From a virus (Duplodnaviria; Heunggongvirae; Uroviricota; Caudoviricetes), in IMG/VR virus record IMGVR_UViG_2630968533_000002: a DNA stretch of 20,741 nucleotides; one strand, 5' to 3'. A model generated the notes under the pieces. The model was not told where the DNA came from, ran no database searches, and saw nothing but the letters and a program-made list of their open reading frames with translations. This document shows, in pieces, positions 3,997 through 20,741 of this stretch. A program made the position numbers and the translations under genes. The stretch's first letter is position 1, and every line of letters begins with the position of its first letter.

Positions 3997-4107
3997 GGCC
4001 CCATCAACGGGGATCGGATTTGAAATCCCGACCCCAAGCTATGTACCAAATGCCATGTCTTGGATATATGATGATTGCCATTCTAAACAACGCTAAAGGG
4101 GGTTGGT

Positions 4108-4722
4108 GTGAGCAGAAAAGATACTAAAGAATTGCTAACTATCTGCATGGTGTACTTTTCAATTTATTTTTGTGCATACATGATAGTCCCAGATGAGTTT
4201 GAACATGGCAGTATTATTTATTCCATAACATTCTATTTTTTAGAGCTAACACCAATTTTGGCTATCCTTTTGGCAATACATATTTATTTTTCCTTAAAAA
4301 AAGAATCGACTAATTGGGAGAAGGTATGGAGAGACAGAGGATTTCTAACATCACCTAAAGATGATGCATATGAGAGTGATTTTTCTGACTTTATAACAAA
4401 CTACTACTCCAGCGAACAATTCAAAAATAGACTGTCTGATGTTTGGGAAACAGCAATGTATTCTATAGGGATTATATTATTGATACTTACTGGTATTGCT
4501 CAATATGTTTTTAACATTGACTTATCATTAAATCCTGAAAATTTAATATCGCCATTGATTTTTGGTGAGATATTGATCTTCTCATTCGGAATTTTCTTGA
4601 GTGTTGTTCTCTGCTCATTATGCAAGCTACTGACTAACAGGTATCCGGGTGAAGCAAGGAGAGCAAGAAAGGCAAATCCATATTATCTTTTATTTCCTAA
4701 TGGAGACAGCAGAGATATCTAA
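4108..4722 (+). CDS. Polytopic inner-membrane protein (204 aa, GTG start), very low GC; candidate superinfection-exclusion or abortive-infection protein
   Basis: AAAGGGGG Shine-Dalgarno 6 nt upstream of GTG; about six hydrophobic helices with a roughly 70-aa charged loop; AT-rich codons (by eye near 30% GC) against a roughly 50% background; convergent with the 701-aa gene. Confidence 0.6.
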   Translation: MSRKDTKELLTICMVYFSIYFCAYMIVPDEFEHGSIIYSITFYFLELTPILAILLAIHIYFSLKKESTNWEKVWRDRGFLTSPKDDAYESDFSDFITNYYSSEQFKNRLSDVWETAMYSIGIILLILTGIAQYVFNIDLSLNPENLISPLIFGEILIFSFGIFLSVVLCSLCKLLTNRYPGEARRARKANPYYLLFPNGDSRDI

Positions 4723-4741
4723 GCCATCCATGGCTAACCAG

Positions 4742-6847
4742 TTATTGAGCTTCTTTTTGTGATGCCTGTGCGACTCTGGTGAGCGATTGTGTGACCGTAC
4801 TGATCGCTCTGTCATATGCTGTGCTACCTTTTGGCGTATTTGCCAGACGTAACAAGGCATTTCGTATAACAGGGCTTTCGTATGCCTTCGCTGCTCCGCC
4901 TACGGCACCAGCAGCAGGAACAACAAACGCAGCCGTTTTTAGCATCCCCGCTAATACTGCTGCGTTTATGATGCCACCACCAACTAACAATCCATAAAGC
5001 TGCTGACCATTTAAGTTTTGAACGTTCGCTTTTGCCGCGTGTCTTGTATCGTTGAGGTATTTAATAACGCCGTCCAGTTCCTTTCCATGTACGCCTTTAA
5101 AGAAAGTTGCTGATTGCTTCCTGTTCCGGTGTAACGCATTAATAAACTTTTCAACACTAATATTTCCAGACGGATCAGTCGCCTTATCTACAGCATTCTG
5201 AACTATGGCTGCTCGTGCGTTTTGCCTACCATTGTCATCCAGAAGCCTGTAAAGCTGAGAACGTTCTGATGGGCTTTGGCTAAAAACGAGTTTTGTTACA
5301 TCCTCAGGCGTGGCCTTGCCGCTGGCTATTGCCTTTTGAACGCGCGTTCTTCCCATCATGTCATTGAATTTAGACCATGAGCGATCAACCCTTGCCATAT
5401 TAATGGCTTCGTCTGCTCCAAGATTTTTGGCTACGGCTTTTTTCATATCCGCCGTATATGCCTTGTAGATAATATCGCTGGCTTTCTGGAGCGTATCTTT
5501 ATCAACAGTGTCAGATGACGCCATAAATCTCTTTCGAAGATCGGTTCTGTTTTCCCTCGCCAGACGCAGGTCATTTGGTCCGCTGGTGATATCGTCTTTA
5601 AATTGCTGCAAGACTTTTACCGCGGCTCTATCCTGAGATTTGCCCGGGCGGCTTAACACGGCAATCTGATTGTCGATAGCTTTTACCGTGTTTGAGAGAT
5701 CGACAGGGGTATCCCCCATAGCGTCAATTATGCGGTTATATCGCTTTCCTGCTGCCTCAATGAATTTTTGTTGCCCTTTAGTCGCAGATTCATAAAGCTG
5801 TTTATCAGAAATGCCACCCAGACCATCGCTAAATGTTCTGACTAAATTTTCTCGTGCTTGTTGTTGATTCAGCCGATTCTTACCGGTTCCAAAAAAAGGA
5901 ACTCTTTCGCCTAATGTCTGAGCCTGACTCTGCATAAAGGTTTTATCTTTCAGCATGTCACTGGTCATTAACGGCAGATTTCTTTCCGATGCAAAGTCGA
6001 CAGCAGCCTTTGCTTCAGGCGACATATCACCACGAACAGCCCTCGAAACCGCACTCGCTGTATTTTCCAGCCCCTTACCAATACCACCAATGCCAGCAGA
6101 AATTACCGTTTGTAACGGATCAATACCTTCTCCACCAGCAAGGCTGGTGGCTCCCTGTAGTGCTAAATCTGTAGCTGCTGATTTTCCTATGGCACCAAGC
6201 ACCGTTCCAGCCCTGCCCGCTGGTGTAAACGCCAGCGCATTAGCCAGAAACGATGCCACGTCTTGCGGCGATAAACCCGGCTTGTTCAGAGCATAATCAC
6301 CGGATGGCAGGGAAACGATAGTGTTACCCTTCTCATCCTGCCTTAATTTCGCTCCCATGCTCTGAAGAATCTTTTCCTGAGATGCGTCAGAGCCGAAAAG
6401 TTGAGACCATCGAGCTTTTAGAGCATCCATGCTGAGTGAGGTTAACTCTGGGGCAAGGTCGACATTTTGCAGTCTCTCCATCTCTGGAGTCATTCGGCTT
6501 TCGCCTGTTATAGCATCGCGCATCGCAGCCCCAAGACTGGCTCCCTGTTCTGCTGAACGCTCAAGCCCCTCTCTTTGCTGAGTAGCTAACTTTGCATACC
6601 CTGACGCAAGAGAATTATCAGATGATGTATGTTGAATATTTTGAGTTGCTGATTGGGCTCGGTCTATTTCATTCGTTGATGGTAGTGGATAGGCAGCATA
6701 AAAAGCCTGCTTAGCCTGTGCTACACTTTCTCCGGCTTGCGGGGCAACGACTTCATTGAAGTATTGCTCCTGAGCCTGCGCTTTTTGTTCTGGTGCTAAC
6801 GCCTGATACTGTGGAGAGGCGATAACATCTTTCCATGCTTTAGCCAT
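4742..6847 (-). CDS. 701-aa Ala/Gln/Gly-rich protein with hydrophobic Gly-rich C-terminus; P22 gp16-like ejection (DNA-transfer) protein candidate
   Basis: Long ORF, start overlaps upstream stop; composition and position as last gene of the 153/225/473/701 series; similarity to gp16 inferred from size, order and composition only. Confidence 0.7.
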   Translation of the reverse strand: MAKAWKDVIASPQYQALAPEQKAQAQEQYFNEVVAPQAGESVAQAKQAFYAAYPLPSTNEIDRAQSATQNIQHTSSDNSLASGYAKLATQQREGLERSAEQGASLGAAMRDAITGESRMTPEMERLQNVDLAPELTSLSMDALKARWSQLFGSDASQEKILQSMGAKLRQDEKGNTIVSLPSGDYALNKPGLSPQDVASFLANALAFTPAGRAGTVLGAIGKSAATDLALQGATSLAGGEGIDPLQTVISAGIGGIGKGLENTASAVSRAVRGDMSPEAKAAVDFASERNLPLMTSDMLKDKTFMQSQAQTLGERVPFFGTGKNRLNQQQARENLVRTFSDGLGGISDKQLYESATKGQQKFIEAAGKRYNRIIDAMGDTPVDLSNTVKAIDNQIAVLSRPGKSQDRAAVKVLQQFKDDITSGPNDLRLARENRTDLRKRFMASSDTVDKDTLQKASDIIYKAYTADMKKAVAKNLGADEAINMARVDRSWSKFNDMMGRTRVQKAIASGKATPEDVTKLVFSQSPSERSQLYRLLDDNGRQNARAAIVQNAVDKATDPSGNISVEKFINALHRNRKQSATFFKGVHGKELDGVIKYLNDTRHAAKANVQNLNGQQLYGLLVGGGIINAAVLAGMLKTAAFVVPAAGAVGGAAKAYESPVIRNALLRLANTPKGSTAYDRAISTVTQSLTRVAQASQKEAQ

Positions 6848-8268
6848 TAATCACCCCATAGTGAAGAAAAATTACTGCTGGCTGCTGGCTGTGATACCTG
6901 CTCAGATTGCGGCAATGTCTGCGACGAAGAAGAAGTTCCTCTGTCAACTGCTGAAATAACCCGCAAAGCATCATAAGCTCGACCAGAAGCAGCTTTCAGC
7001 GAATTGAACTGGTTTTCCATCTTCCTACGCTTGGTATCAATGGTTTTTGTGGAATCACCAGGCTGAGGGAAATACATTTGATAATATTTGGACATTTCAG
7101 CTGGTAGGATAGATGCCCCTGTTTCCTGACGGAGTATTGCCATTATTGCGTCATTAGCATTAACAACGTATTGCTGCTCTGTTGGGCTGAGCGTTAAGTT
7201 AGCCAGCGTCCCATTACCCAAAGCATTATTAATGATCGCCACTCGCTGTGGGCTAAGCTGGTCTTTCAGTGTATCTATTGAATCAAGAGCATCCCTAACT
7301 CTGTATGCAAATCCAGCAGCTTTTTTAGCCCCTTCTGGCGACTTTTCCATGATCTTTTGGGCTGTTGGCAAAGCTATTGGACGAAACCCATCTCCAGATA
7401 TTGGCTGGTTTAGTTTTCCCTGCTCTTCACTTCCGTCTGTGTAGTATTTTGTGACAGTGCCATCATCGTTTTCTCTAACACTCATTAATTTTTTGGCGTT
7501 TGTATTAATTCCAGCCGCTGCCGCAAATGCCGCAGCCCCCTCTGGATCCGCCTTTAACATTTGCGCGTACTGATTGTAATTCTGCATTGCGGCTGTTGGT
7601 GCATATGCTGACGTTAACGCATTTGCTCGGCTAATATCCTGCCCTCTCGCCTGAAGTGCTTCTCCAGCCTGATTGCTGCGGATTGTCTCTGCCAACTTGC
7701 CACGCTCAATATCCCGACCTTCCATTCGATCTTTGATATCGAAGTACTTCTCATGACCGAGAGAAAACAGTGCCATACTACCAGCAAGCCGCTGGAATCC
7801 CTGTGGATCATTAACATGCATTTCGGCAACAGACTCAGGAGAAATCCCCAAGCGACGCATTTCATCTTCGTTATCTGCTATGAATTTTCCAAATGCCCCA
7901 GTTCCGAGCGAAGATGCGATTTGAGCACTAGTCGCAAGATGACCAATAGAATTTCTCTGGTCGTCATCAATAAAGCCCATCCCTTTCTGAACGCTTTCAA
8001 ATTCTTCTGGATACTCAGAAATAAGACTGCGCATTTTGTTTCTGTCTCCAGACTCAAAAGCCCCGGCATATGCTTTCTGAAACTCTGCTTTACGCTGTTG
8101 TTGACGTGCCTGCTGATTAATCTCAGCAACGCCTCTTATCCCCTGTAGCGCCATTAAACCTACGTTTGGCTGCTGCTGATACTGCACAGGCTGAGGAACG
8201 GAAGAACGAGGAGCATTATCATTTTGCGGTGCCATGCTAGGCAGCCCGCCAAGTTGCCATGTCGCCAT
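6847..8268 (-). CDS. 473-aa protein; P22 gp20-like ejection protein candidate
   Basis: Long ORF translationally coupled to both neighbours; size close to P22 gp20 (about 471 aa, from memory). Confidence 0.7.
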   Translation of the reverse strand: MATWQLGGLPSMAPQNDNAPRSSVPQPVQYQQQPNVGLMALQGIRGVAEINQQARQQQRKAEFQKAYAGAFESGDRNKMRSLISEYPEEFESVQKGMGFIDDDQRNSIGHLATSAQIASSLGTGAFGKFIADNEDEMRRLGISPESVAEMHVNDPQGFQRLAGSMALFSLGHEKYFDIKDRMEGRDIERGKLAETIRSNQAGEALQARGQDISRANALTSAYAPTAAMQNYNQYAQMLKADPEGAAAFAAAAGINTNAKKLMSVRENDDGTVTKYYTDGSEEQGKLNQPISGDGFRPIALPTAQKIMEKSPEGAKKAAGFAYRVRDALDSIDTLKDQLSPQRVAIINNALGNGTLANLTLSPTEQQYVVNANDAIMAILRQETGASILPAEMSKYYQMYFPQPGDSTKTIDTKRRKMENQFNSLKAASGRAYDALRVISAVDRGTSSSSQTLPQSEQVSQPAASSNFSSLWGD

Positions 8269-8945
8269 TAGAATCCAAGCCCCCCAACAAGACCAATAAG
8301 CCCACCACCAATAGCGCCTGCCGCAGTACCTATTCCAGGAACAACGGAACCAAGTTGAGCACCCGCTAAAGCGCCTGATGCTGCCCCACCAATACCACGC
8401 GCAAGACTGGATGGCTGCTGCGCCTGACCTGCACGAATAGCGCCAAGCCCCTGCAAGAGTTGTCCGGTATTATTGGCGTAGTTTTGCCCTGCCGTTGCCT
8501 GCCCTGATGCCGCATTCATCCCGACATTTAGCAGGTTTCCATAATTTTGCATTTGCCCACTAAGCCAATTGTTATAAAGCATGGGCGCAATGGAAGATAA
8601 CTGGTTACTGGTAGCTGTTGAGCCAAGCCCCCCGGTAGCTTCTGCTGAGACAAGGTTCTGATAACGGGCCTGATCTGCCTGTGTTTTATATAAACCAGAA
8701 CCAAAGAAATCATTCGCGGCTTTATTCTGCCCTTCCAGAGTCATCAGTCCTTGTAGTTGTTGTAAAGCAGGCAATCCGACTTCTGCATACGGCTTGAGAT
8801 TATTCATCACCGTATTCCACTGCTCGCGCTGCAAATCAATTGCCTGCTGCTGGGCCTTCGCCTGAGCTTTAGAGGCACCACCATCACCGCCTTTTTCGTA
8901 TACGGCACGATTGAGATGTTTATGAGCTATATGGGTAATTAACAT
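8268..8945 (-). CDS. 225-aa protein with Gly-rich hydrophobic C-terminal tail; P22 gp7-like ejection protein candidate
   Basis: ORF overlapping neighbours; C-terminus GIGGAASGALAGAQLGSVVPGIGTAAGAIGGGLIGLVGGLGF; size close to P22 gp7 (about 229 aa, from memory). Confidence 0.7.
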   Translation of the reverse strand: MLITHIAHKHLNRAVYEKGGDGGASKAQAKAQQQAIDLQREQWNTVMNNLKPYAEVGLPALQQLQGLMTLEGQNKAANDFFGSGLYKTQADQARYQNLVSAEATGGLGSTATSNQLSSIAPMLYNNWLSGQMQNYGNLLNVGMNAASGQATAGQNYANNTGQLLQGLGAIRAGQAQQPSSLARGIGGAASGALAGAQLGSVVPGIGTAAGAIGGGLIGLVGGLGF

Positions 8946-9400
8946 TCGCTGAATTCCTTATATTGTTGCCGAGTTAACTGATAAAGCGTTACGCCGACGG
9001 GTTTACCACATCTGATATAAGCATCATCAAGGTGACCAACACGGGTAGCGCCAAGCAAACGGATAATTGCCCGTCCGTATTTGGTGGTGTCAGGAACCAT
9101 GGTAATGCTGTTAAGGAATGGTGAGTTTTCGAGAAGCCATTTGCAGAATAATCGATGCCCTTGCAGTGCATATTCACCACGGAATCCGGGGTCGTACACC
9201 GCATGGCATTCAACAATGCTATGCCAGAAGTTACGCACTTCATGAACGCCAGCCAGCACCAATCCTTCGTAGATGCCGAGATATACCGCATCAGGCTTGA
9301 TGTAGTACGTGTGCCCCGGCTCAACAATATTTTCGGTATTGCCAGGATCGTTAAGAAAGGCCTGTAATCGCACAGGGTTATCAATAAATTTTAGTTCCAT
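8939..9400 (-). CDS. 153-aa protein, first large gene of the operon; gp14-like position
   Basis: ORF overlapping the 225-aa gene by 7 bp; function unknown; assignment by position only. Confidence 0.6.
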   Translation of the reverse strand: MELKFIDNPVRLQAFLNDPGNTENIVEPGHTYYIKPDAVYLGIYEGLVLAGVHEVRNFWHSIVECHAVYDPGFRGEYALQGHRLFCKWLLENSPFLNSITMVPDTTKYGRAIIRLLGATRVGHLDDAYIRCGKPVGVTLYQLTRQQYKEFSEC

Positions 9401-15445: not shown

Positions 15446-15636
15446 TTTTCACCCCCAAGAATTACCAGCTCGGCACGGGCATCGTTAACCAAAGATGAGC
15501 ACGCTTTAATCGCATCCACGACATCAGCAGCGTCCATTTCTTCAGCTGAAAGACTGACAGCAACCAGGACAGCCGCTGCTTGCTCGATTAATTGAAGTGC
15601 GGACGTAAGGCGAGGGGTATTAATTGAGTTATTCAT
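15442..15636 (-). CDS. Hypothetical small protein (64 aa from MNNSIN)
   Basis: Internal ATG at 15636 with G-rich Shine-Dalgarno-like sequence, overlapping the upstream stop (ATGAATAA). Confidence 0.4.
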   Translation of the reverse strand: MNNSINTPRLTSALQLIEQAAAVLVAVSLSAEEMDAADVVDAIKACSSLVNDARAELVILGGEK

Positions 15637-16657
15637 TGGTTGCCCCCGTTTTTCCTGGCATTTCGCCACCTTCCAGCAGGAAATGAACGTCACGAACGGC
15701 GAGATCCAATATCGCGAGTAACGCCTTCAGTCTTTCGTCTCGTGAGGGAGAGTTGCTCACCAGAATGTCGTTAATCACTTCTGTCAGTGTGATGATCTGG
15801 CTTGTGCGTTCGAGGGGATCCATATGCACATCGTAGGTTTTAATCATGTGCCACCTCCATGCGGATACGACCAGCAAAAAAGCAGACGTGATCGCGCACC
15901 AGAGAACGGCGAGCATCGCGTTCAGACTCGGCAGCAATATGATGAATTTTGGCGGTAATTGTCGGGCAATCGCGGCGAACTGCGGCGATAATCCAGATAA
16001 ATTGCGGTTTTTGGGTAGGGGTAGTAGCCAGCATGTGGCAGCCTCCTTGATTGATGGTTTATAGCCACCGCCCAAGAGACCAATCTTGCTGGCGGTGGAC
16101 TGTACGGAGTTGGCCTTACTGGCAATCAAGGAAACCAGCCTACCCGAAGGTAGCCCCATACAGCCCACCATTGATAAGGTGTGCGTGTGCGCCGATACAA
16201 AAAAAGACGCTGGCGCGTCATGTATCGCCTCGATTGTCAGCGGGAGGCCAATCCCGGCACCCGTTTTATGAGGTGCCTTATAACCATAAACCGTGTTGCC
16301 GCATAACGGCAAGCTCTTTTTTATGGACTCCGAAAACTCACTATTGGAAGCACCAGATGCACAATACATCGCGCTCATTTCGTTAACGTCGCGAGTGTGG
16401 ACGAAGGTTTTTGTGGAGTCACTACGCGAGCAGAGAAAGCCATCTACGACCAGAAATTCTCTGGCGCTGCCGCTGACCTTCTCAACGCTAACATCATCGA
16501 CCGTAATTTCTGACATAGTTAAGGCATCCGCTCCTACCACCAGTAAATGATAAACTTTGCTTGTATCTGCTGTATTAATGCCTGACTTTGACGCCATATT
16601 GCTGGATTTTGGCGACATGCCAGCCAGTGAAAATATCTTCTTCTGGACGGGTATCAT
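15629..16657 (-). CDS. 342-codon ORF, Ser/Leu-rich; the C-terminal 72 codons (15629-15847) may be a separate gene; a second ORF is embedded out of frame at 15840-16034
   Basis: Start ATG at 16657 overlaps the TGA of the upstream 59-aa gene (ATGA); internal MIKTYD start at 15847 has a GGAGGTGG Shine-Dalgarno; true gene structure is uncertain. Confidence 0.4.
15840..16034 (-). CDS. 64-aa ORF, possibly Icd-like (host cell-division inhibitor family), embedded out of frame in the 342-codon ORF
   Basis: Canonical AAGGAGG Shine-Dalgarno 7 nt upstream of ATG; [10 protein letters not shown]...[14 protein letters not shown] motif loosely recalls Icd-like proteins of P4-type elements (memory only). Confidence 0.4.
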   Translation of the reverse strand: MLATTPTQKPQFIWIIAAVRRDCPTITAKIHHIAAESERDARRSLVRDHVCFFAGRIRMEVAHD

Positions 16658-17671: not shown

Positions 17672-18103
17672 TTAGGCGGCGTTAAACGCGTCCGGGTAGA
17701 GTTTCAGAATGTCGGCAATTTCCTGCTGAGAAAGTCCGTTGTGATCATTTATGCTCGCAAGATGGTTAACATGAGTGATCACTTTCAGAACATCACCACG
17801 GCAGGAGAAACGGTAGCGAAGGTGTGTTCCGATACCATCAGGATTCTTTTCGTCGATACGCTCCAGAGTGATTCCAAGCTGGCGTTCTAACTCTGTTGCA
17901 TAGTTACGACCAGAAGACAGACGACAGTAGCGAAGAATGTCATTTTCTGTCCATCCCTCTATACCAGTACGCAGCATATAGACTCTGGCACGATGCTTTT
18001 TCGGTGTGCGCTTTGGTGCTTGAAGGGATTTTGTAAGGGGCGTAACATCAGATACGCGAATATCTGAATTAGCCGCCTGTAATGGGCGGTTTTTCTTTTC
18101 CAT
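17672..18103 (-). CDS. Hypothetical basic protein (143 aa)
   Basis: ORF immediately downstream of alpA with its start overlapping the alpA stop; no family recognised. Confidence 0.5.
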   Translation of the reverse strand: MEKKNRPLQAANSDIRVSDVTPLTKSLQAPKRTPKKHRARVYMLRTGIEGWTENDILRYCRLSSGRNYATELERQLGITLERIDEKNPDGIGTHLRYRFSCRGDVLKVITHVNHLASINDHNGLSQQEIADILKLYPDAFNAA

Positions 18104-18306
18104 CAGACCACCTTCCCGCGGCGTTCTGCCAGCCAGTTGTGAATCTCAACCGCATCAAACGCAGTTATTTTTTCTCCCAGCTTTACCGGACGTGGTAGTG
18201 AACCGTTTCTTACTTTACGGTCGATGGTGGATACACTAACGCCCAGCAATTCAGCCAGGCGGAAGCGTCTGATATAGCCTTTTGTAGGAATAGTGTCGGT
18301 GTTCAT
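18103..18306 (-). CDS. alpA: AlpA-family excisionase/transcriptional regulator (67 aa)
   Basis: Small basic protein with helix-turn-helix LAELLGVSVSTIDRKVRNGSLPRPVKLGEKITAF..EIHNWL, typical of AlpA/Vis-type proteins; sits one gene away from the integrase as in CP4-57-type elements. Confidence 0.7.
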   Translation of the reverse strand: MNTDTIPTKGYIRRFRLAELLGVSVSTIDRKVRNGSLPRPVKLGEKITAFDAVEIHNWLAERRGKVV

Positions 18307-18381
18307 GCTTCCCGTAACCTCTTAGCGATAGTTGTTGCTTCGTTACGGGAGGAAGTATCTGTACATATATGAACAATAAAA

Positions 18382-18405
18382 AGGCACAGTAATGATACTG
18401 TGCCT
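18382..18405 (-). terminator. Intrinsic terminator hairpin (10-bp stem AGGCACAGTA/TACTGTGCCT, 4-nt loop) with U-rich tail on the minus strand
   Basis: Read directly; 16 bp downstream of the stop of the 321-aa gene and upstream of alpA. Confidence 0.55.
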
Positions 18406-18420
18406 GAATAGTTAGCTACT

Positions 18421-19386
18421 CTACCCCTTACCGTTGGCGGCAGCACGTAAGTGTCTCAAAATCACATCTTCATTTGTGATTGCTAACGGTGGAATTTCGT
18501 CTTTATGAGCCACTATGCAATCCCGCCACTTCTCAGGGCTTATTTCTTTCTTTTTGCCACGGCATTCATCAGGATACTTTGACAAAAGATATATTGCTGA
18601 TTTGAAAAGTTTTTCCCTGTTTTCAGCATGTCTCTCGGCATTATGGTTGCTATTTTTTATTTCAGGTATTAGTTCCTGTTCTACCGCCATTTCGTATCGT
18701 TTTTTGCTCTTAGCTGCGTCAAAACTTCCATTAACCTTTGCGTCGTGAAGGTATTCTAAATCAGCCTTTGTTATATAAATGTTTTTATCTGACAGGCTAC
18801 TCAGGTGAATCTGGGAACTTTGCATTTTGAATTTATATAGATCACAATCAAATGTTGCTTCAAGTCGCACATATGGCTCTCCACATTCTTGTGAATGATA
18901 ATGTCGTTTTGTACTACCGCGTACACGCAACAATCCACATGCAATTGATTTTCTTACAATAAAAGAGTTTTTGCCAATTTGTTCAAAAACATTTTTATTG
19001 TCTCTGTCTTCAACTGTCAGTGGTTTATGTGCATAAAATAGCTCATAAGCACCGCTTTCAGATGCTGGGATATAAACTTCGTTGCTTGCGCTGGTAATAA
19101 GAAAAGGAAATGTAAACCTTACTTCTTCTGGGTACATAAGTAATAAATCAGTTATAAAATCAGCATCTTTTTTGAAGTGGATGGTGGCATCAGCTTCAAT
19201 GAAATCAAGAAAGTCAGCATAGACATAAAAGTCTATATGTAGTCTATCTTTCCAATGCCATATATCATCAATTTCACAATTTAATAATTTTGATGCTCGC
19301 TCTATCGTGCAGTAGTCCAAAGGTGGAATACCTGATTCCTGCCATAAATTTCTATGCACCGCAGTTGTTTCATGAGAGTCGTTCAT
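18421..19386 (-). CDS. Orphan AT-rich 321-aa protein of unknown function (cargo gene between int and alpA)
   Basis: Long ORF with AAAGGTGA Shine-Dalgarno-like sequence; GC clearly below neighbours (by eye about 37%); own terminator; no recognisable domain. Confidence 0.65.
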   Translation of the reverse strand: MNDSHETTAVHRNLWQESGIPPLDYCTIERASKLLNCEIDDIWHWKDRLHIDFYVYADFLDFIEADATIHFKKDADFITDLLLMYPEEVRFTFPFLITSASNEVYIPASESGAYELFYAHKPLTVEDRDNKNVFEQIGKNSFIVRKSIACGLLRVRGSTKRHYHSQECGEPYVRLEATFDCDLYKFKMQSSQIHLSSLSDKNIYITKADLEYLHDAKVNGSFDAAKSKKRYEMAVEQELIPEIKNSNHNAERHAENREKLFKSAIYLLSKYPDECRGKKKEISPEKWRDCIVAHKDEIPPLAITNEDVILRHLRAAANGKG

Positions 19387-19481
19387 TGCGTCACCTTTTA
19401 CGCTGCGCCTTATTTTGTGATTGAGCCAGGCGGTAAGGCTTCCCGCTTTTCGCCCCGTCGAGCTAGGCTCAATCTATTCAG

Positions 19482-20741
19482 TTAGTTCGCCCTTCTGAGA
19501 GGCGTTACGTTGTAGTCTTTTCCGCTTTCCAGTGCCACCAGCAGATCAGCCCACTGTGCCAGTGCTGCTTTACGCTCATTAAAATACTGATGGCGGTTAT
19601 AAATCCCCTCTACGCCCTTAATGCGATGATTGAGGCATCGTTCCGCCACAACAGGATCAACACCCAACGCTGCTAAATGAGTACGTGCGGTGCGTCGGAA
19701 GTCGTGAATCGTGAAATTAGGCACATCCGGCATTTCGGCGCGAACCTTAGCCAGTGCTACGGGTAAAGTGCTTTCCTGAATATGTGGGATCATTCTGTTT
19801 TGCATCTTCCTGGCTGGAAGCACCCATGCGCTATTACATGAAAAGGTGTGTAGCTCTCTCAACCATTCAACGGCTGGAGAAGGTAGAGGTATATCAATAG
19901 GGTCCCCGTTTTTGCTGCGTTCTTCCGGCAAATGCCATACAGCACTATCTAAATCAAACTCTTCCCATCGTGCGGCGCATAACTCCATCTTACGAACGCA
20001 TAGTGCCAGCAATAGCTTAAATGTCAGTTCGTTTTGGCGGCTGAATCCTTTTGCGGTGCGCATAGCCTCGAATAGCCTGATAAGCTCATCGCGAGTTAGC
20101 CAACGGTCGCGGGAAACCTCTTTACCACCAGCATCAGATACTTCAAACGCTGAACAAGGGTTTATCTCCAGAGCATGGCGTTTTATCCCATAGTCAAAGA
20201 TACGGCGTGTCCAGCGTAATACATCTGTTGCTATCGTTGGTGCTCCTCGGTCAACGATACCTTTCAACATGTCGTCAATGTGGCGTGGCTTAACGTCCTC
20301 CACCTTCATATGCCCAATGCAGGGGTTAATATCCTTATCAATTCTCCGGCGAAGGATATCGGGATGTTTCCATCTCGGAAGTATCTGGCGCTCGAAGTAT
20401 TCGGAGGCCAGATCTGAAACACGCATGGCGTTTTTCTCAGCCTCCATTTTTGCCAGTGCTTCAGCTTTTCGTTCCTGTTTCTCTGCTGCTACGTCATAGC
20501 CAAGAGCAACTCTGGCTGACAGCTCTTTTGCTGTTTCTCTGGCTTTTGATAGTGACAGTTCGGAGTAAGAGCCTATAACCATAGCCCGCTGCTTTCCTGC
20601 GAGCTTATAGCGGAATCGCCAGAACGGGACTGTGTAGTTTTTGGGGTAGCAAATATAAAGGCCGTTGCCGTCTGCCTTGCCATCAAATCTGTCTCCCGCC
20701 TTTATCCATGCGCGGATCTGCATATCTGTGAGTTTTGGCAT
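19482..20741 (-). CDS. int: Tyrosine site-specific integrase, P4/CP4-57 (IntA) family; complete, ATG at the last bases of the window
   Basis: N-terminal PKLTD...WRFRY aligns with the N-terminus of IntA-type integrases from memory; C-terminal HDFRRT and GIYNRHQY catalytic His-x-x-Arg / Tyr motifs. Confidence 0.9.
   Translation of the reverse strand: MPKLTDMQIRAWIKAGDRFDGKADGNGLYICYPKNYTVPFWRFRYKLAGKQRAMVIGSYSELSLSKARETAKELSARVALGYDVAAEKQERKAEALAKMEAEKNAMRVSDLASEYFERQILPRWKHPDILRRRIDKDINPCIGHMKVEDVKPRHIDDMLKGIVDRGAPTIATDVLRWTRRIFDYGIKRHALEINPCSAFEVSDAGGKEVSRDRWLTRDELIRLFEAMRTAKGFSRQNELTFKLLLALCVRKMELCAARWEEFDLDSAVWHLPEERSKNGDPIDIPLPSPAVEWLRELHTFSCNSAWVLPARKMQNRMIPHIQESTLPVALAKVRAEMPDVPNFTIHDFRRTARTHLAALGVDPVVAERCLNHRIKGVEGIYNRHQYFNERKAALAQWADLLVALESGKDYNVTPLRRAN

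Follow-up and report, generated by a model that had tools for sequence, protein, structure and literature searches.

The virus record IMGVR_UViG_2630968533_000002 (Caudoviricetes), a stretch of 20,741 nucleotides that is referred to here in its entirety as the window, carries on its minus strand an integrase gene (int), a 95-bp spacer, an open reading frame (ORF) for a protein of 321 amino acids (aa), a 114-bp spacer and a gene of the AlpA family (alpA), in that order (Table 1). The subject of this work is the ORF that occupies the slot between int and alpA. It is a real gene under protein-level selection. A first-pass annotation made from the letters alone had described a 321-aa ORF with a good ribosome-binding site, and both are indeed present, with AAGGTG placed 5 nt before the ATG. 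We estimate the chance probability of a 321-codon open frame as ~1e-10, given that ~6.8% stop codons would be expected at the composition of the ORF. The same annotation had noted a GC content clearly below that of the neighbors, which is borne out by values of 0.373 for the ORF (0.298 at third codon positions), 0.492 for int, 0.500 for alpA and 0.494 for the next 3 kb.

The spacer between int and the ORF showed no sigma-70-like promoter, and the ORF is therefore probably co-transcribed with int. Other alleles likewise indicate an int operon, as they lie 11-18 bp from int or overlap it by 4 nt.

Table 1. Positions of the int-alpA cassette and of other features in the window.
Feature	Position	Strand	Description
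int	19482-20741	minus	integrase gene
int-alpA RNA (Rfam RF02996)	19407-19473	minus	cmscan 60.6 bits (gathering score 35.8); full model 1-71 of 71
Shine-Dalgarno AAGGTG	19392-19397	minus	5 nt ahead of ORF ATG; read off the sequence
Accessory-protein coding sequence (ORF)	18421-19386	minus	321 aa, ATG start; RefSeq WP_001000002.1, 'hypothetical protein'
N-domain	19171-19347	minus	aa ~14-72; MerR/Xis/AlpA-fold winged helix, isoelectric point (pI) 4.7, net charge -8
Middle module	18658-19170	minus	aa 73-243; beta-rich, hypervariable, acidic
Constant C-domain	18424-18657	minus	aa 244-321 (78 aa); basic, helical
RNA hairpin + T-run	18372-18405	minus	intrinsic terminator or 3' stabilizer; stem-loop at 18382-18405
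Inverted repeat	18311-18349	minus	just upstream of alpA ATG (18306)
alpA	18103-18306	minus	AlpA-family gene
'ash family protein' ORF	15629-16657		342 aa
isrK RNA (Rfam)	16200-16276	minus	65 bits; within 'ash' ORF
C4 antisense RNA (Rfam)	16088-16175	minus	79.2 bits; within 'ash' ORF

A large enterobacterial family upstream of alpA

A search of 5.8 billion proteins recovers 48 homologous clusters at E<=1e-3, every one of them named 'hypothetical', from sources that include E. coli, Salmonella, Enterobacter, Cedecea, Klebsiella, Pectobacterium, Pantoea and Serratia. A profile search of 1.84 billion representatives extends this to 610 clusters at 50% identity (180 at E<=1e-10), most of which are 270-350 aa long and match over their full length. 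All named members that we checked belong to Enterobacterales. A scan of genome contigs gave only 2 loci.

In all loci examined (29 loci from eight named genera and metagenomes), the gene is the immediate upstream neighbor of alpA and is co-oriented with it. These comprise loci from E. coli (L005-L007, L020/L024), Salmonella (L003), Pectobacterium (L010), Pantoea (L012), Serratia (L014) and Klebsiella (L015/L016), a distant member (L017), L008/L009, a circular 21.8-kb Klebsiella 'plasmid' (L019) and ten IMG/VR contigs with lengths of 11.5-41.6 kb (11.5-20 kb in seven cases), among others. The first-pass annotation had called the gene an orphan, a description that is refuted by the 610 clusters and by the position common to the 29 loci. 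Downstream of alpA, the family loci continue with a ~140-aa gene, AntA/Bro, other genes and a primase, while the chromosomal insertion sites vary (yicC, der and the cysS-folD region). Three loci with relatives that share the C-domain (L026, L028 and L029) have the gene directly upstream of alpA with no adjacent integrase, and the constant neighbor is therefore alpA rather than int.

Three further records are small circular Klebsiella 'plasmids' flagged as non-mobilizable: CP031371.2 (L019, 21,845 bp), NZ_CP033626.1 (22,859 bp) and LR134256.1 (20,968 bp). The annotation of CP031371.2 reads family member, alpA, antirepressor and DUF4222, with Rfam C4/isrK also present, and the record looks like an excised circular satellite of the phage-inducible chromosomal island (PICI) or P4-like type that was deposited as a plasmid. 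The other two are suspected circular satellites, judged from their size and a tblastn match only.

Neither Pfam nor NCBIfam matches the window protein or 72 relatives. In PHROGs v4, 28 of the 73 family relatives match phrog_7144 (best E-value 1e-123), a cluster of unknown function that carries no functional annotation, and the window protein itself has no match at E<=0.01. PADLOC-DB 2.0 assigns no defense family to the window protein or its relatives beyond one weak match to PDC-S31, which we rejected as spurious (E = 0.002, non-collinear, 1 of 73 members). Profile searches of PDB sequences with the whole family and with the C-domain gave no useful match even at E<=10, and neither Foldseek against the PDB, tblastn against 50,697 phage genomes nor a domain-fusion search among longer relatives returned anything useful. 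In a literature search, the RefSeq accessions of family proteins were mentioned in no paper. The family is large, unnamed and, where its members are named, enterobacterial, with no annotation in any current library beyond an unnamed PHROG.

A hypervariable acidic part joined to a constant basic domain

An AlphaFold model of the window protein, made with a 73-sequence alignment, has a mean predicted local distance difference test score (pLDDT) of 79.8 and resolves into three parts (Table 1). The first-pass annotation had recognized no domain in the protein; the model nonetheless places at the N-terminus the beta-alpha-alpha-beta-beta winged-helix fold of the AlpA/Xis/MerR type. At the sequence level, the Phage_AlpA and HTH_17 Pfam profiles match neither the window protein nor the 72 relatives, and hhalign against an AlpA alignment gives E = 0.042 with a probability of 1.2%. 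The N-domain thus resembles the AlpA/Xis/TorI/MerR domains (PF05930, PF12728) in fold while falling below every Pfam hidden Markov model (HMM) threshold. It also differs from them in charge: those domains bind DNA via basic surfaces, whereas the N-terminal 72 aa of the family are acidic in 15 of the 16 members checked (pI 4.2-5.7) and near neutral in one distant member (6.6). TorI and CbpM are protein-binding relatives of the AlpA/Xis/MerR winged helices, and given the acidity of the N-domain, they would be a better analogy than the DNA binders.

The middle module has no fold match, and its pLDDT ranges from 40 to 95 per 10-residue block, with the lowest values at aa 91-130. Net charges are -2 to -10 for the N module and -1 to -19 for the middle module. 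The C-domain is the sole basic part of the protein (pI 8.5-9.7) and the most confidently modeled (pLDDT 93-98). Its motif in the window type is H..AERHA.NRE..L.SAI..LSKYP.ECRG..KEISPEKWRDC...H..E.PPL.I.NE.VIL.HLR.A.NG, which across the superfamily reduces to H..AERHA.NRE..L.AAI....P.EC...W, where E, R, E, C and W are invariant (E250, R256, E257, C275 and W287 in the window protein). It has no known relative in sequence or structure, with no match in Pfam and none among PDB sequences, even at E<=10.

The division is sharpest when alleles are compared. Between the window and the E. coli locus L005, Int is 91% and AlpA 94% identical, and yet the ORF proteins are only ~20% identical over their first 60 residues and in their middle; more generally, the middle module is ~16-24% identical between allele types, even on backbones as similar as these. 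The C-terminal 78 residues are 69-90% identical in all comparisons, including that with Serratia L014, where Int is 29% and AlpA ~30% identical. Within the window allele type, the winged-helix core is 90%, the C-domain 87-97% and the middle 34-70% identical, and one relative (P0005) has a window-type N-terminus joined to a different middle. The family thus joins a hypervariable part to an invariant domain.

Two other causes of the C-domain conservation can be excluded. Over the C-terminal 73 codons, the proportion of synonymous differences (pS) is 0.52-1.08 and that of nonsynonymous differences (pN) is 0.05-0.23, with pS saturated (>0.75) in 19 of 21 pairs. Saturated synonymous sites with low pN imply protein-level purifying selection on old alleles, and they exclude both a constraint on the DNA, such as an embedded alpA promoter, and recent recombination or transfer. 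Even between the window and L005, the conserved C-domain is saturated at synonymous sites despite the near-identical backbones. Whole alleles are exchanged as cassettes between near-identical backbones, with old alleles residing on young backbones.

Alternative cassettes in a satellite related to EcCIMP1

The island that carries the gene is identical to that of E. coli strain ECONIH1 (L001) over the searched 1.2-kb segment (18300-19500) and is integrated between yicC and dinD. Beyond alpA, it encodes a 143-aa protein, AntA, DUF4222, 'ash', a DUF5906 primase, P22-type DNA-ejection proteins and PerC. The same gene content and several identical proteins are found in EcCIMP1, a PICI of E. coli MP1 (PMC11773190). 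The excision of EcCIMP1, induction of its alpA and its transduction have been shown experimentally and occur only upon induction of the P22-like helper Kapi1; int and alpA are sufficient for excision, and EcCIMP1-type elements confer superinfection immunity by an unidentified mechanism (PMC11773190). The 'ash' ORF contains both C4 and isrK, the RNA pair of the P4-type CI / seqA immunity system, which is also found in L005, L012, L015, L019 and EcCIMP1 (L025). Given this RNA pair and the match to EcCIMP1, we assign the island to the P4/PICI type of satellite, and by gene content it is an EcCIMP1/P4-like phage satellite. The 342-aa 'ash' ORF may itself be partly an annotation artifact over the RNA locus.

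The int/alpA backbone occurs in 678 of 5426 complete E. coli genomes, only 76-77 of which have the window allele. Four other cassettes occupy the slot at the yicC site. Two encode relatives, namely a family member of 316 aa in 41 genomes and, in 38 genomes, a protein of 281 aa that belongs to the broader family and has a different C-domain subtype. The third, in 24 genomes, encodes a protein of 293 aa that the family HMM misses and whose N-terminus aligns weakly (E = 0.022), and the fourth, in 112 genomes, an unrelated protein of 216 aa. Together with the window allele, this makes at least five alternative cassettes of ~0.65-0.97 kb at yicC, which occur at intermediate frequencies among the 5426 genomes and lie between alpA and an int that is 95-99% identical. 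Loci L022 and L023 have slot genes from outside the family. This comparison of occupants across related elements bears out the earlier proposal that the slot is variable. In EcCIMP1, the slot is a 427-bp gap with tiny ORFs only and the gene is absent; because this satellite is functional, the gene is accessory and dispensable for the satellite cycle. All slot occupants are AT-rich (GC 0.34-0.43 versus ~0.50), as is usual for mobile accessory cargo, and the low GC of the window gene is therefore no mark of a recent one-off acquisition.

The slot of L023 (E. coli AH19E045, yicC backbone) also holds a non-coding stretch of 471 bp with a GC content of 0.34 (573-1043), which lies between the 216-aa gene and alpA and carries repeated TTCAATAGATT-like motifs. 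The 216-aa gene overlaps the int stop by 4 nt.

The first-pass annotation had further noted that yfjH sits between intA and alpA in the K-12 element CP4-57. This is correct, and YfjH is similar to the window protein in being an uncharacterized 318-aa product of an AT-rich gene (GC 0.37) in the same slot. It is nevertheless encoded opposite to intA and alpA, while the window ORF is co-oriented with both, and the two genes are not related: we rejected YfjH as a member of the family, as BLASTP gives E = 0.43 with the window protein and 3.4 with relative P0012, and the family HMM has no match.

RNA elements at the cassette boundaries

The leader of the ORF contains a structure that was absent from the first-pass annotation, a three-way junction starting 9 nt past the int stop that matches the int-alpA RNA, which Rfam classes as a small RNA (RF02996). 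Its predicted folding energy is -32.4 kcal/mol (z = -2.7). The window motif differs from the Rfam consensus in being separated from alpA by the 1.1-kb cassette and in having the U-rich tail replaced by UCACAAAAU. The same RNA precedes slot genes of different families (L003, L010, L014, L015, L021 and L022) and is missing from loci with a slot gene that directly adjoins or overlaps int (L005/L020, L012 and L023).

At the other end, the strong hairpin terminator proposed earlier as insulating the gene from alpA is supported by its stem, T-run and covariation. On the sense strand (18405-18382), it reads AGGCACAGTA-TCAT-TACTGTGCCT followed by TTTTATT, with a 10-bp stem, 5 GC pairs and a 4-nt loop, and the local fold has an energy of -21.3 kcal/mol (z = -5.4 versus shuffles). 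It is kept in 24 of 24 further loci with a KEISPEKW-type C-domain, with a variant stem in L009/L039, while in L029, where the gene is split and lies 26 bp from alpA, only a 6-bp repeat is left. The U-run is only UUAU in most relatives, where termination efficiency is uncertain. In eleven sequences, compensatory changes occur at three of nine pairs, and those changes that affect one side only all remain G.U-compatible, a pattern that indicates an RNA structure on the sense strand of the gene. No such hairpin follows the broad-family alleles L021 and L019. We had considered the palindrome as a DNA operator for the basic C-domain and rejected this idea on the grounds of the G.U-compatible changes and three compensatory pairs, and because broad-family alleles with the same alpA promoter lack the palindrome behind them. 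The cassette is composed of a leader (often with an int-alpA RNA), the gene and its own RNA hairpin terminator, and it is placed between int and the alpA promoter. The 3' arm of the hairpin abuts the -35 element of a weak, putative alpA promoter (TTTTTA, 17-bp spacer, GATACT).

A second inverted repeat, CCCGTAAC-N23-GTTACGGG, lies just upstream of the alpA start and encloses the alpA Shine-Dalgarno region. The GTAAC/GTTAC core of this repeat does not vary among 10 loci, and compensatory changes affect two outer pairs (e.g., CCCCATAAC/GTTATGGGG and CCCTGTAAC/GTTACAGGG). One possibility is a stem in the 5' untranslated region (5'UTR) through which alpA translation is controlled; another is a pair of AlpA binding sites for autoregulation. 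In all loci, a TAnnnT hexamer resembling a -10 element is found 4-8 nt upstream of the repeat.

Possible functions of the gene

Taken together, the sequence patterns suggest a role in conflicts between satellites and phages. We arrive at this reading because old alleles are kept at intermediate frequency on young backbones, because the slot is AT-rich and the gene dispensable, and because expression is likely in the integrated state. Our best reading, which we put forward tentatively, is that the gene encodes a phage-sensing interference or defense protein. In the integrated state, the ORF would be made together with int rather than from the alpA operon that the helper induces. A component of an infecting phage, whether rival or helper, would be recognized through the variable N and middle modules. 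The constant C-domain would give a common output via a partner that Enterobacterales share in conserved form, which could be a host factor or a nucleic acid. The outcome would be phage interference in the form of defense or exclusion, and frequency-dependent selection by phages would maintain the many old alleles.

Anti-phage genes in variable satellite slots are known, according to work cited in PMC10085698, and the closest known kind of locus is the variable accessory or defense hotspot of satellites. As described in sources that cite Rousset et al. 2022 (PMC10085698, PMC13586616), the P4 psu-int and P2 hotspots are likewise core-flanked slots with swapped cargo, with AT-rich alternative cassettes on near-identical backbones and a terminator for each cargo. 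The P4 hotspot lies between psu and int, however, whereas the window slot lies between int and alpA in an EcCIMP1-like lineage. The repertoire of the window slot is also narrow, with one uncharacterized superfamily dominant and no recognizable defense system in the six cargos tested.

Several observations weigh against a defense function. The window protein showed no sign of an effector, toxin, enzyme or transmembrane domain, and no defense, toxin or enzyme domain was detected in the other slot cargo either. Established defense hotspots usually include some recognizable systems, and here the cargos of L021, L022 and L023 and YfjH, a handful of sampled alleles, include no PADLOC or Pfam family. 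The cargos are all single genes of 216-321 aa, mostly from one superfamily, which is a narrow repertoire. The superinfection immunity of EcCIMP1 exists without the gene. Finally, the gene is always immediately upstream of alpA, even where there is no adjacent integrase, a position that may be a sign of coupled regulation and not of a slot for cargo.

This last point leads to the main alternative, which we regard as unlikely, in which the protein is a helper-sensing gate on satellite induction that, in the manner of Stl, modulates either AlpA itself or the promoter of its gene. A protein of the helper phage would be the ligand of the N and middle modules, and the C-domain would contact the conserved induction machinery, or else the N-domain would act as an acidic mimic of AlpA/Xis, and allele swaps would alter helper specificity. 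Such a gate is consistent with the gene being co-oriented directly upstream of alpA in every locus, including L026, L028 and L029, and with the Xis/AlpA fold of the N-domain, although the acidity of this domain counts against it. The slot also matches that of stl in the Staphylococcus aureus pathogenicity islands (SaPIs), between int and the lytic operon, and a variable sensor on a constant module is a compatible design. Stl (Rpr) of SaPIs and PICIs is similarly located between int and the lytic-operon regulator and is highly divergent between elements, so the same logic of sensor and constant part would apply. There is, however, no sequence or fold relationship between Stl and the window protein, neither module of which has a DNA-binding signature, and Stl is divergent from the lytic operon, whereas the window gene is co-oriented with it. 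A repressor of the Stl type would be required for repression and present in all members, but EcCIMP1 lacks the gene and other backbones carry unrelated genes.

Evidence from the loci also argues against a gate. EcCIMP1 retains helper-dependent alpA induction and transfer without the gene. Alleles are swapped between the window and L021 while the alpA promoter and 5'UTR are identical, so that any DNA target would have to lie elsewhere, and the only conserved palindrome beside the promoter behaves as an RNA hairpin rather than a DNA operator. In addition, the element already carries the P4-type CI RNA immunity system, C4/isrK. A broader form of the proposal, which we consider rather improbable, is that the family is the missing helper-sensing layer of Gram-negative PICIs and P4-like satellites, analogous to Stl but differently built. 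The N and middle modules could capture a helper protein, and the C-domain could couple this to AlpA induction, possibly via its own hairpin RNA or a host factor. If this were true, a cassette swap would re-target the satellite to a new helper.

There is a small chance that the protein is instead an establishment or counter-defense factor, that is, an acidic protein made with integrase on entry as an anti-restriction or anti-defense decoy, with variation that tracks host defenses. The int operon linkage of the gene (a spacer in which no promoter was found and, for other alleles, short gaps or overlap), its strongly acidic N and middle modules and a polymorphism that fits an arms race all accord with this proposal. 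On the other hand, the protein has no similarity to ArdA, Ocr, KlcA or other known anti-defense proteins, its ~320 aa and basic, constrained C-domain are unlike typical small DNA mimics, and the position beside alpA is kept even without int. A recombination accessory or directionality factor for the integrase, as might be suggested by the adjoining int and the excisionase-type N-terminal fold, is very improbable and was rejected on account of the independence of allele and integrase type (the same C-domain with 29%-identical Ints, different alleles with 91%-identical ones) and by EcCIMP1, which lacks the gene and in which int and alpA suffice for excision, with the presence of the gene in loci without adjacent int and the acidity of the N-domain pointing the same way. 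The remaining probability falls to functions that we cannot name.

AlpA-type satellites are common in Enterobacterales. Whether Gram-negative PICIs have a repressor or sensor was left unresolved in the paper that founded their study (PMC6092414), and the 'integration zone' of satellites has been described as int and AlpA/HTH_17 only (PMC10111431). In the present family, 610 clusters without annotation, always found beside alpA and with ancient alleles on young backbones, bear the signature of a conflict interface. The natural allele swaps on isogenic backbones provide an experimental handle for defense, helper specificity or counter-defense, and the importance of the family would rise if allele-specific phage or helper phenotypes were found. 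If there is no phage phenotype, the analysis still corrects the reading of the gene as orphan cargo and links the int-alpA RNA to a cassette boundary.

Other features of the island

The late region of the island (~6850-9400; 8548-11101 in L001) encodes a DUF2824 protein and a 'phage DNA ejection protein' of the P22 type that are near-identical to those of EcCIMP1, which suggests that the helper is a P22-like (Kapi1-like) phage. At the far end of the island, a second AT-rich stretch (4001-4800, GC 0.31-0.37; ~5809-6423 on the plus strand in L001) contains a hypothetical gene for a 204-aa protein, encoded on the opposite strand close to the PerC-family regulator, and may be another accessory slot. 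Outside the window, a 'reverse transcriptase family protein' is encoded between pyrE and slmA in ECONIH1 (L001 25342-26301), a few kb past yicC and next to the integration site of the island, and may be a retron-type defense gene.

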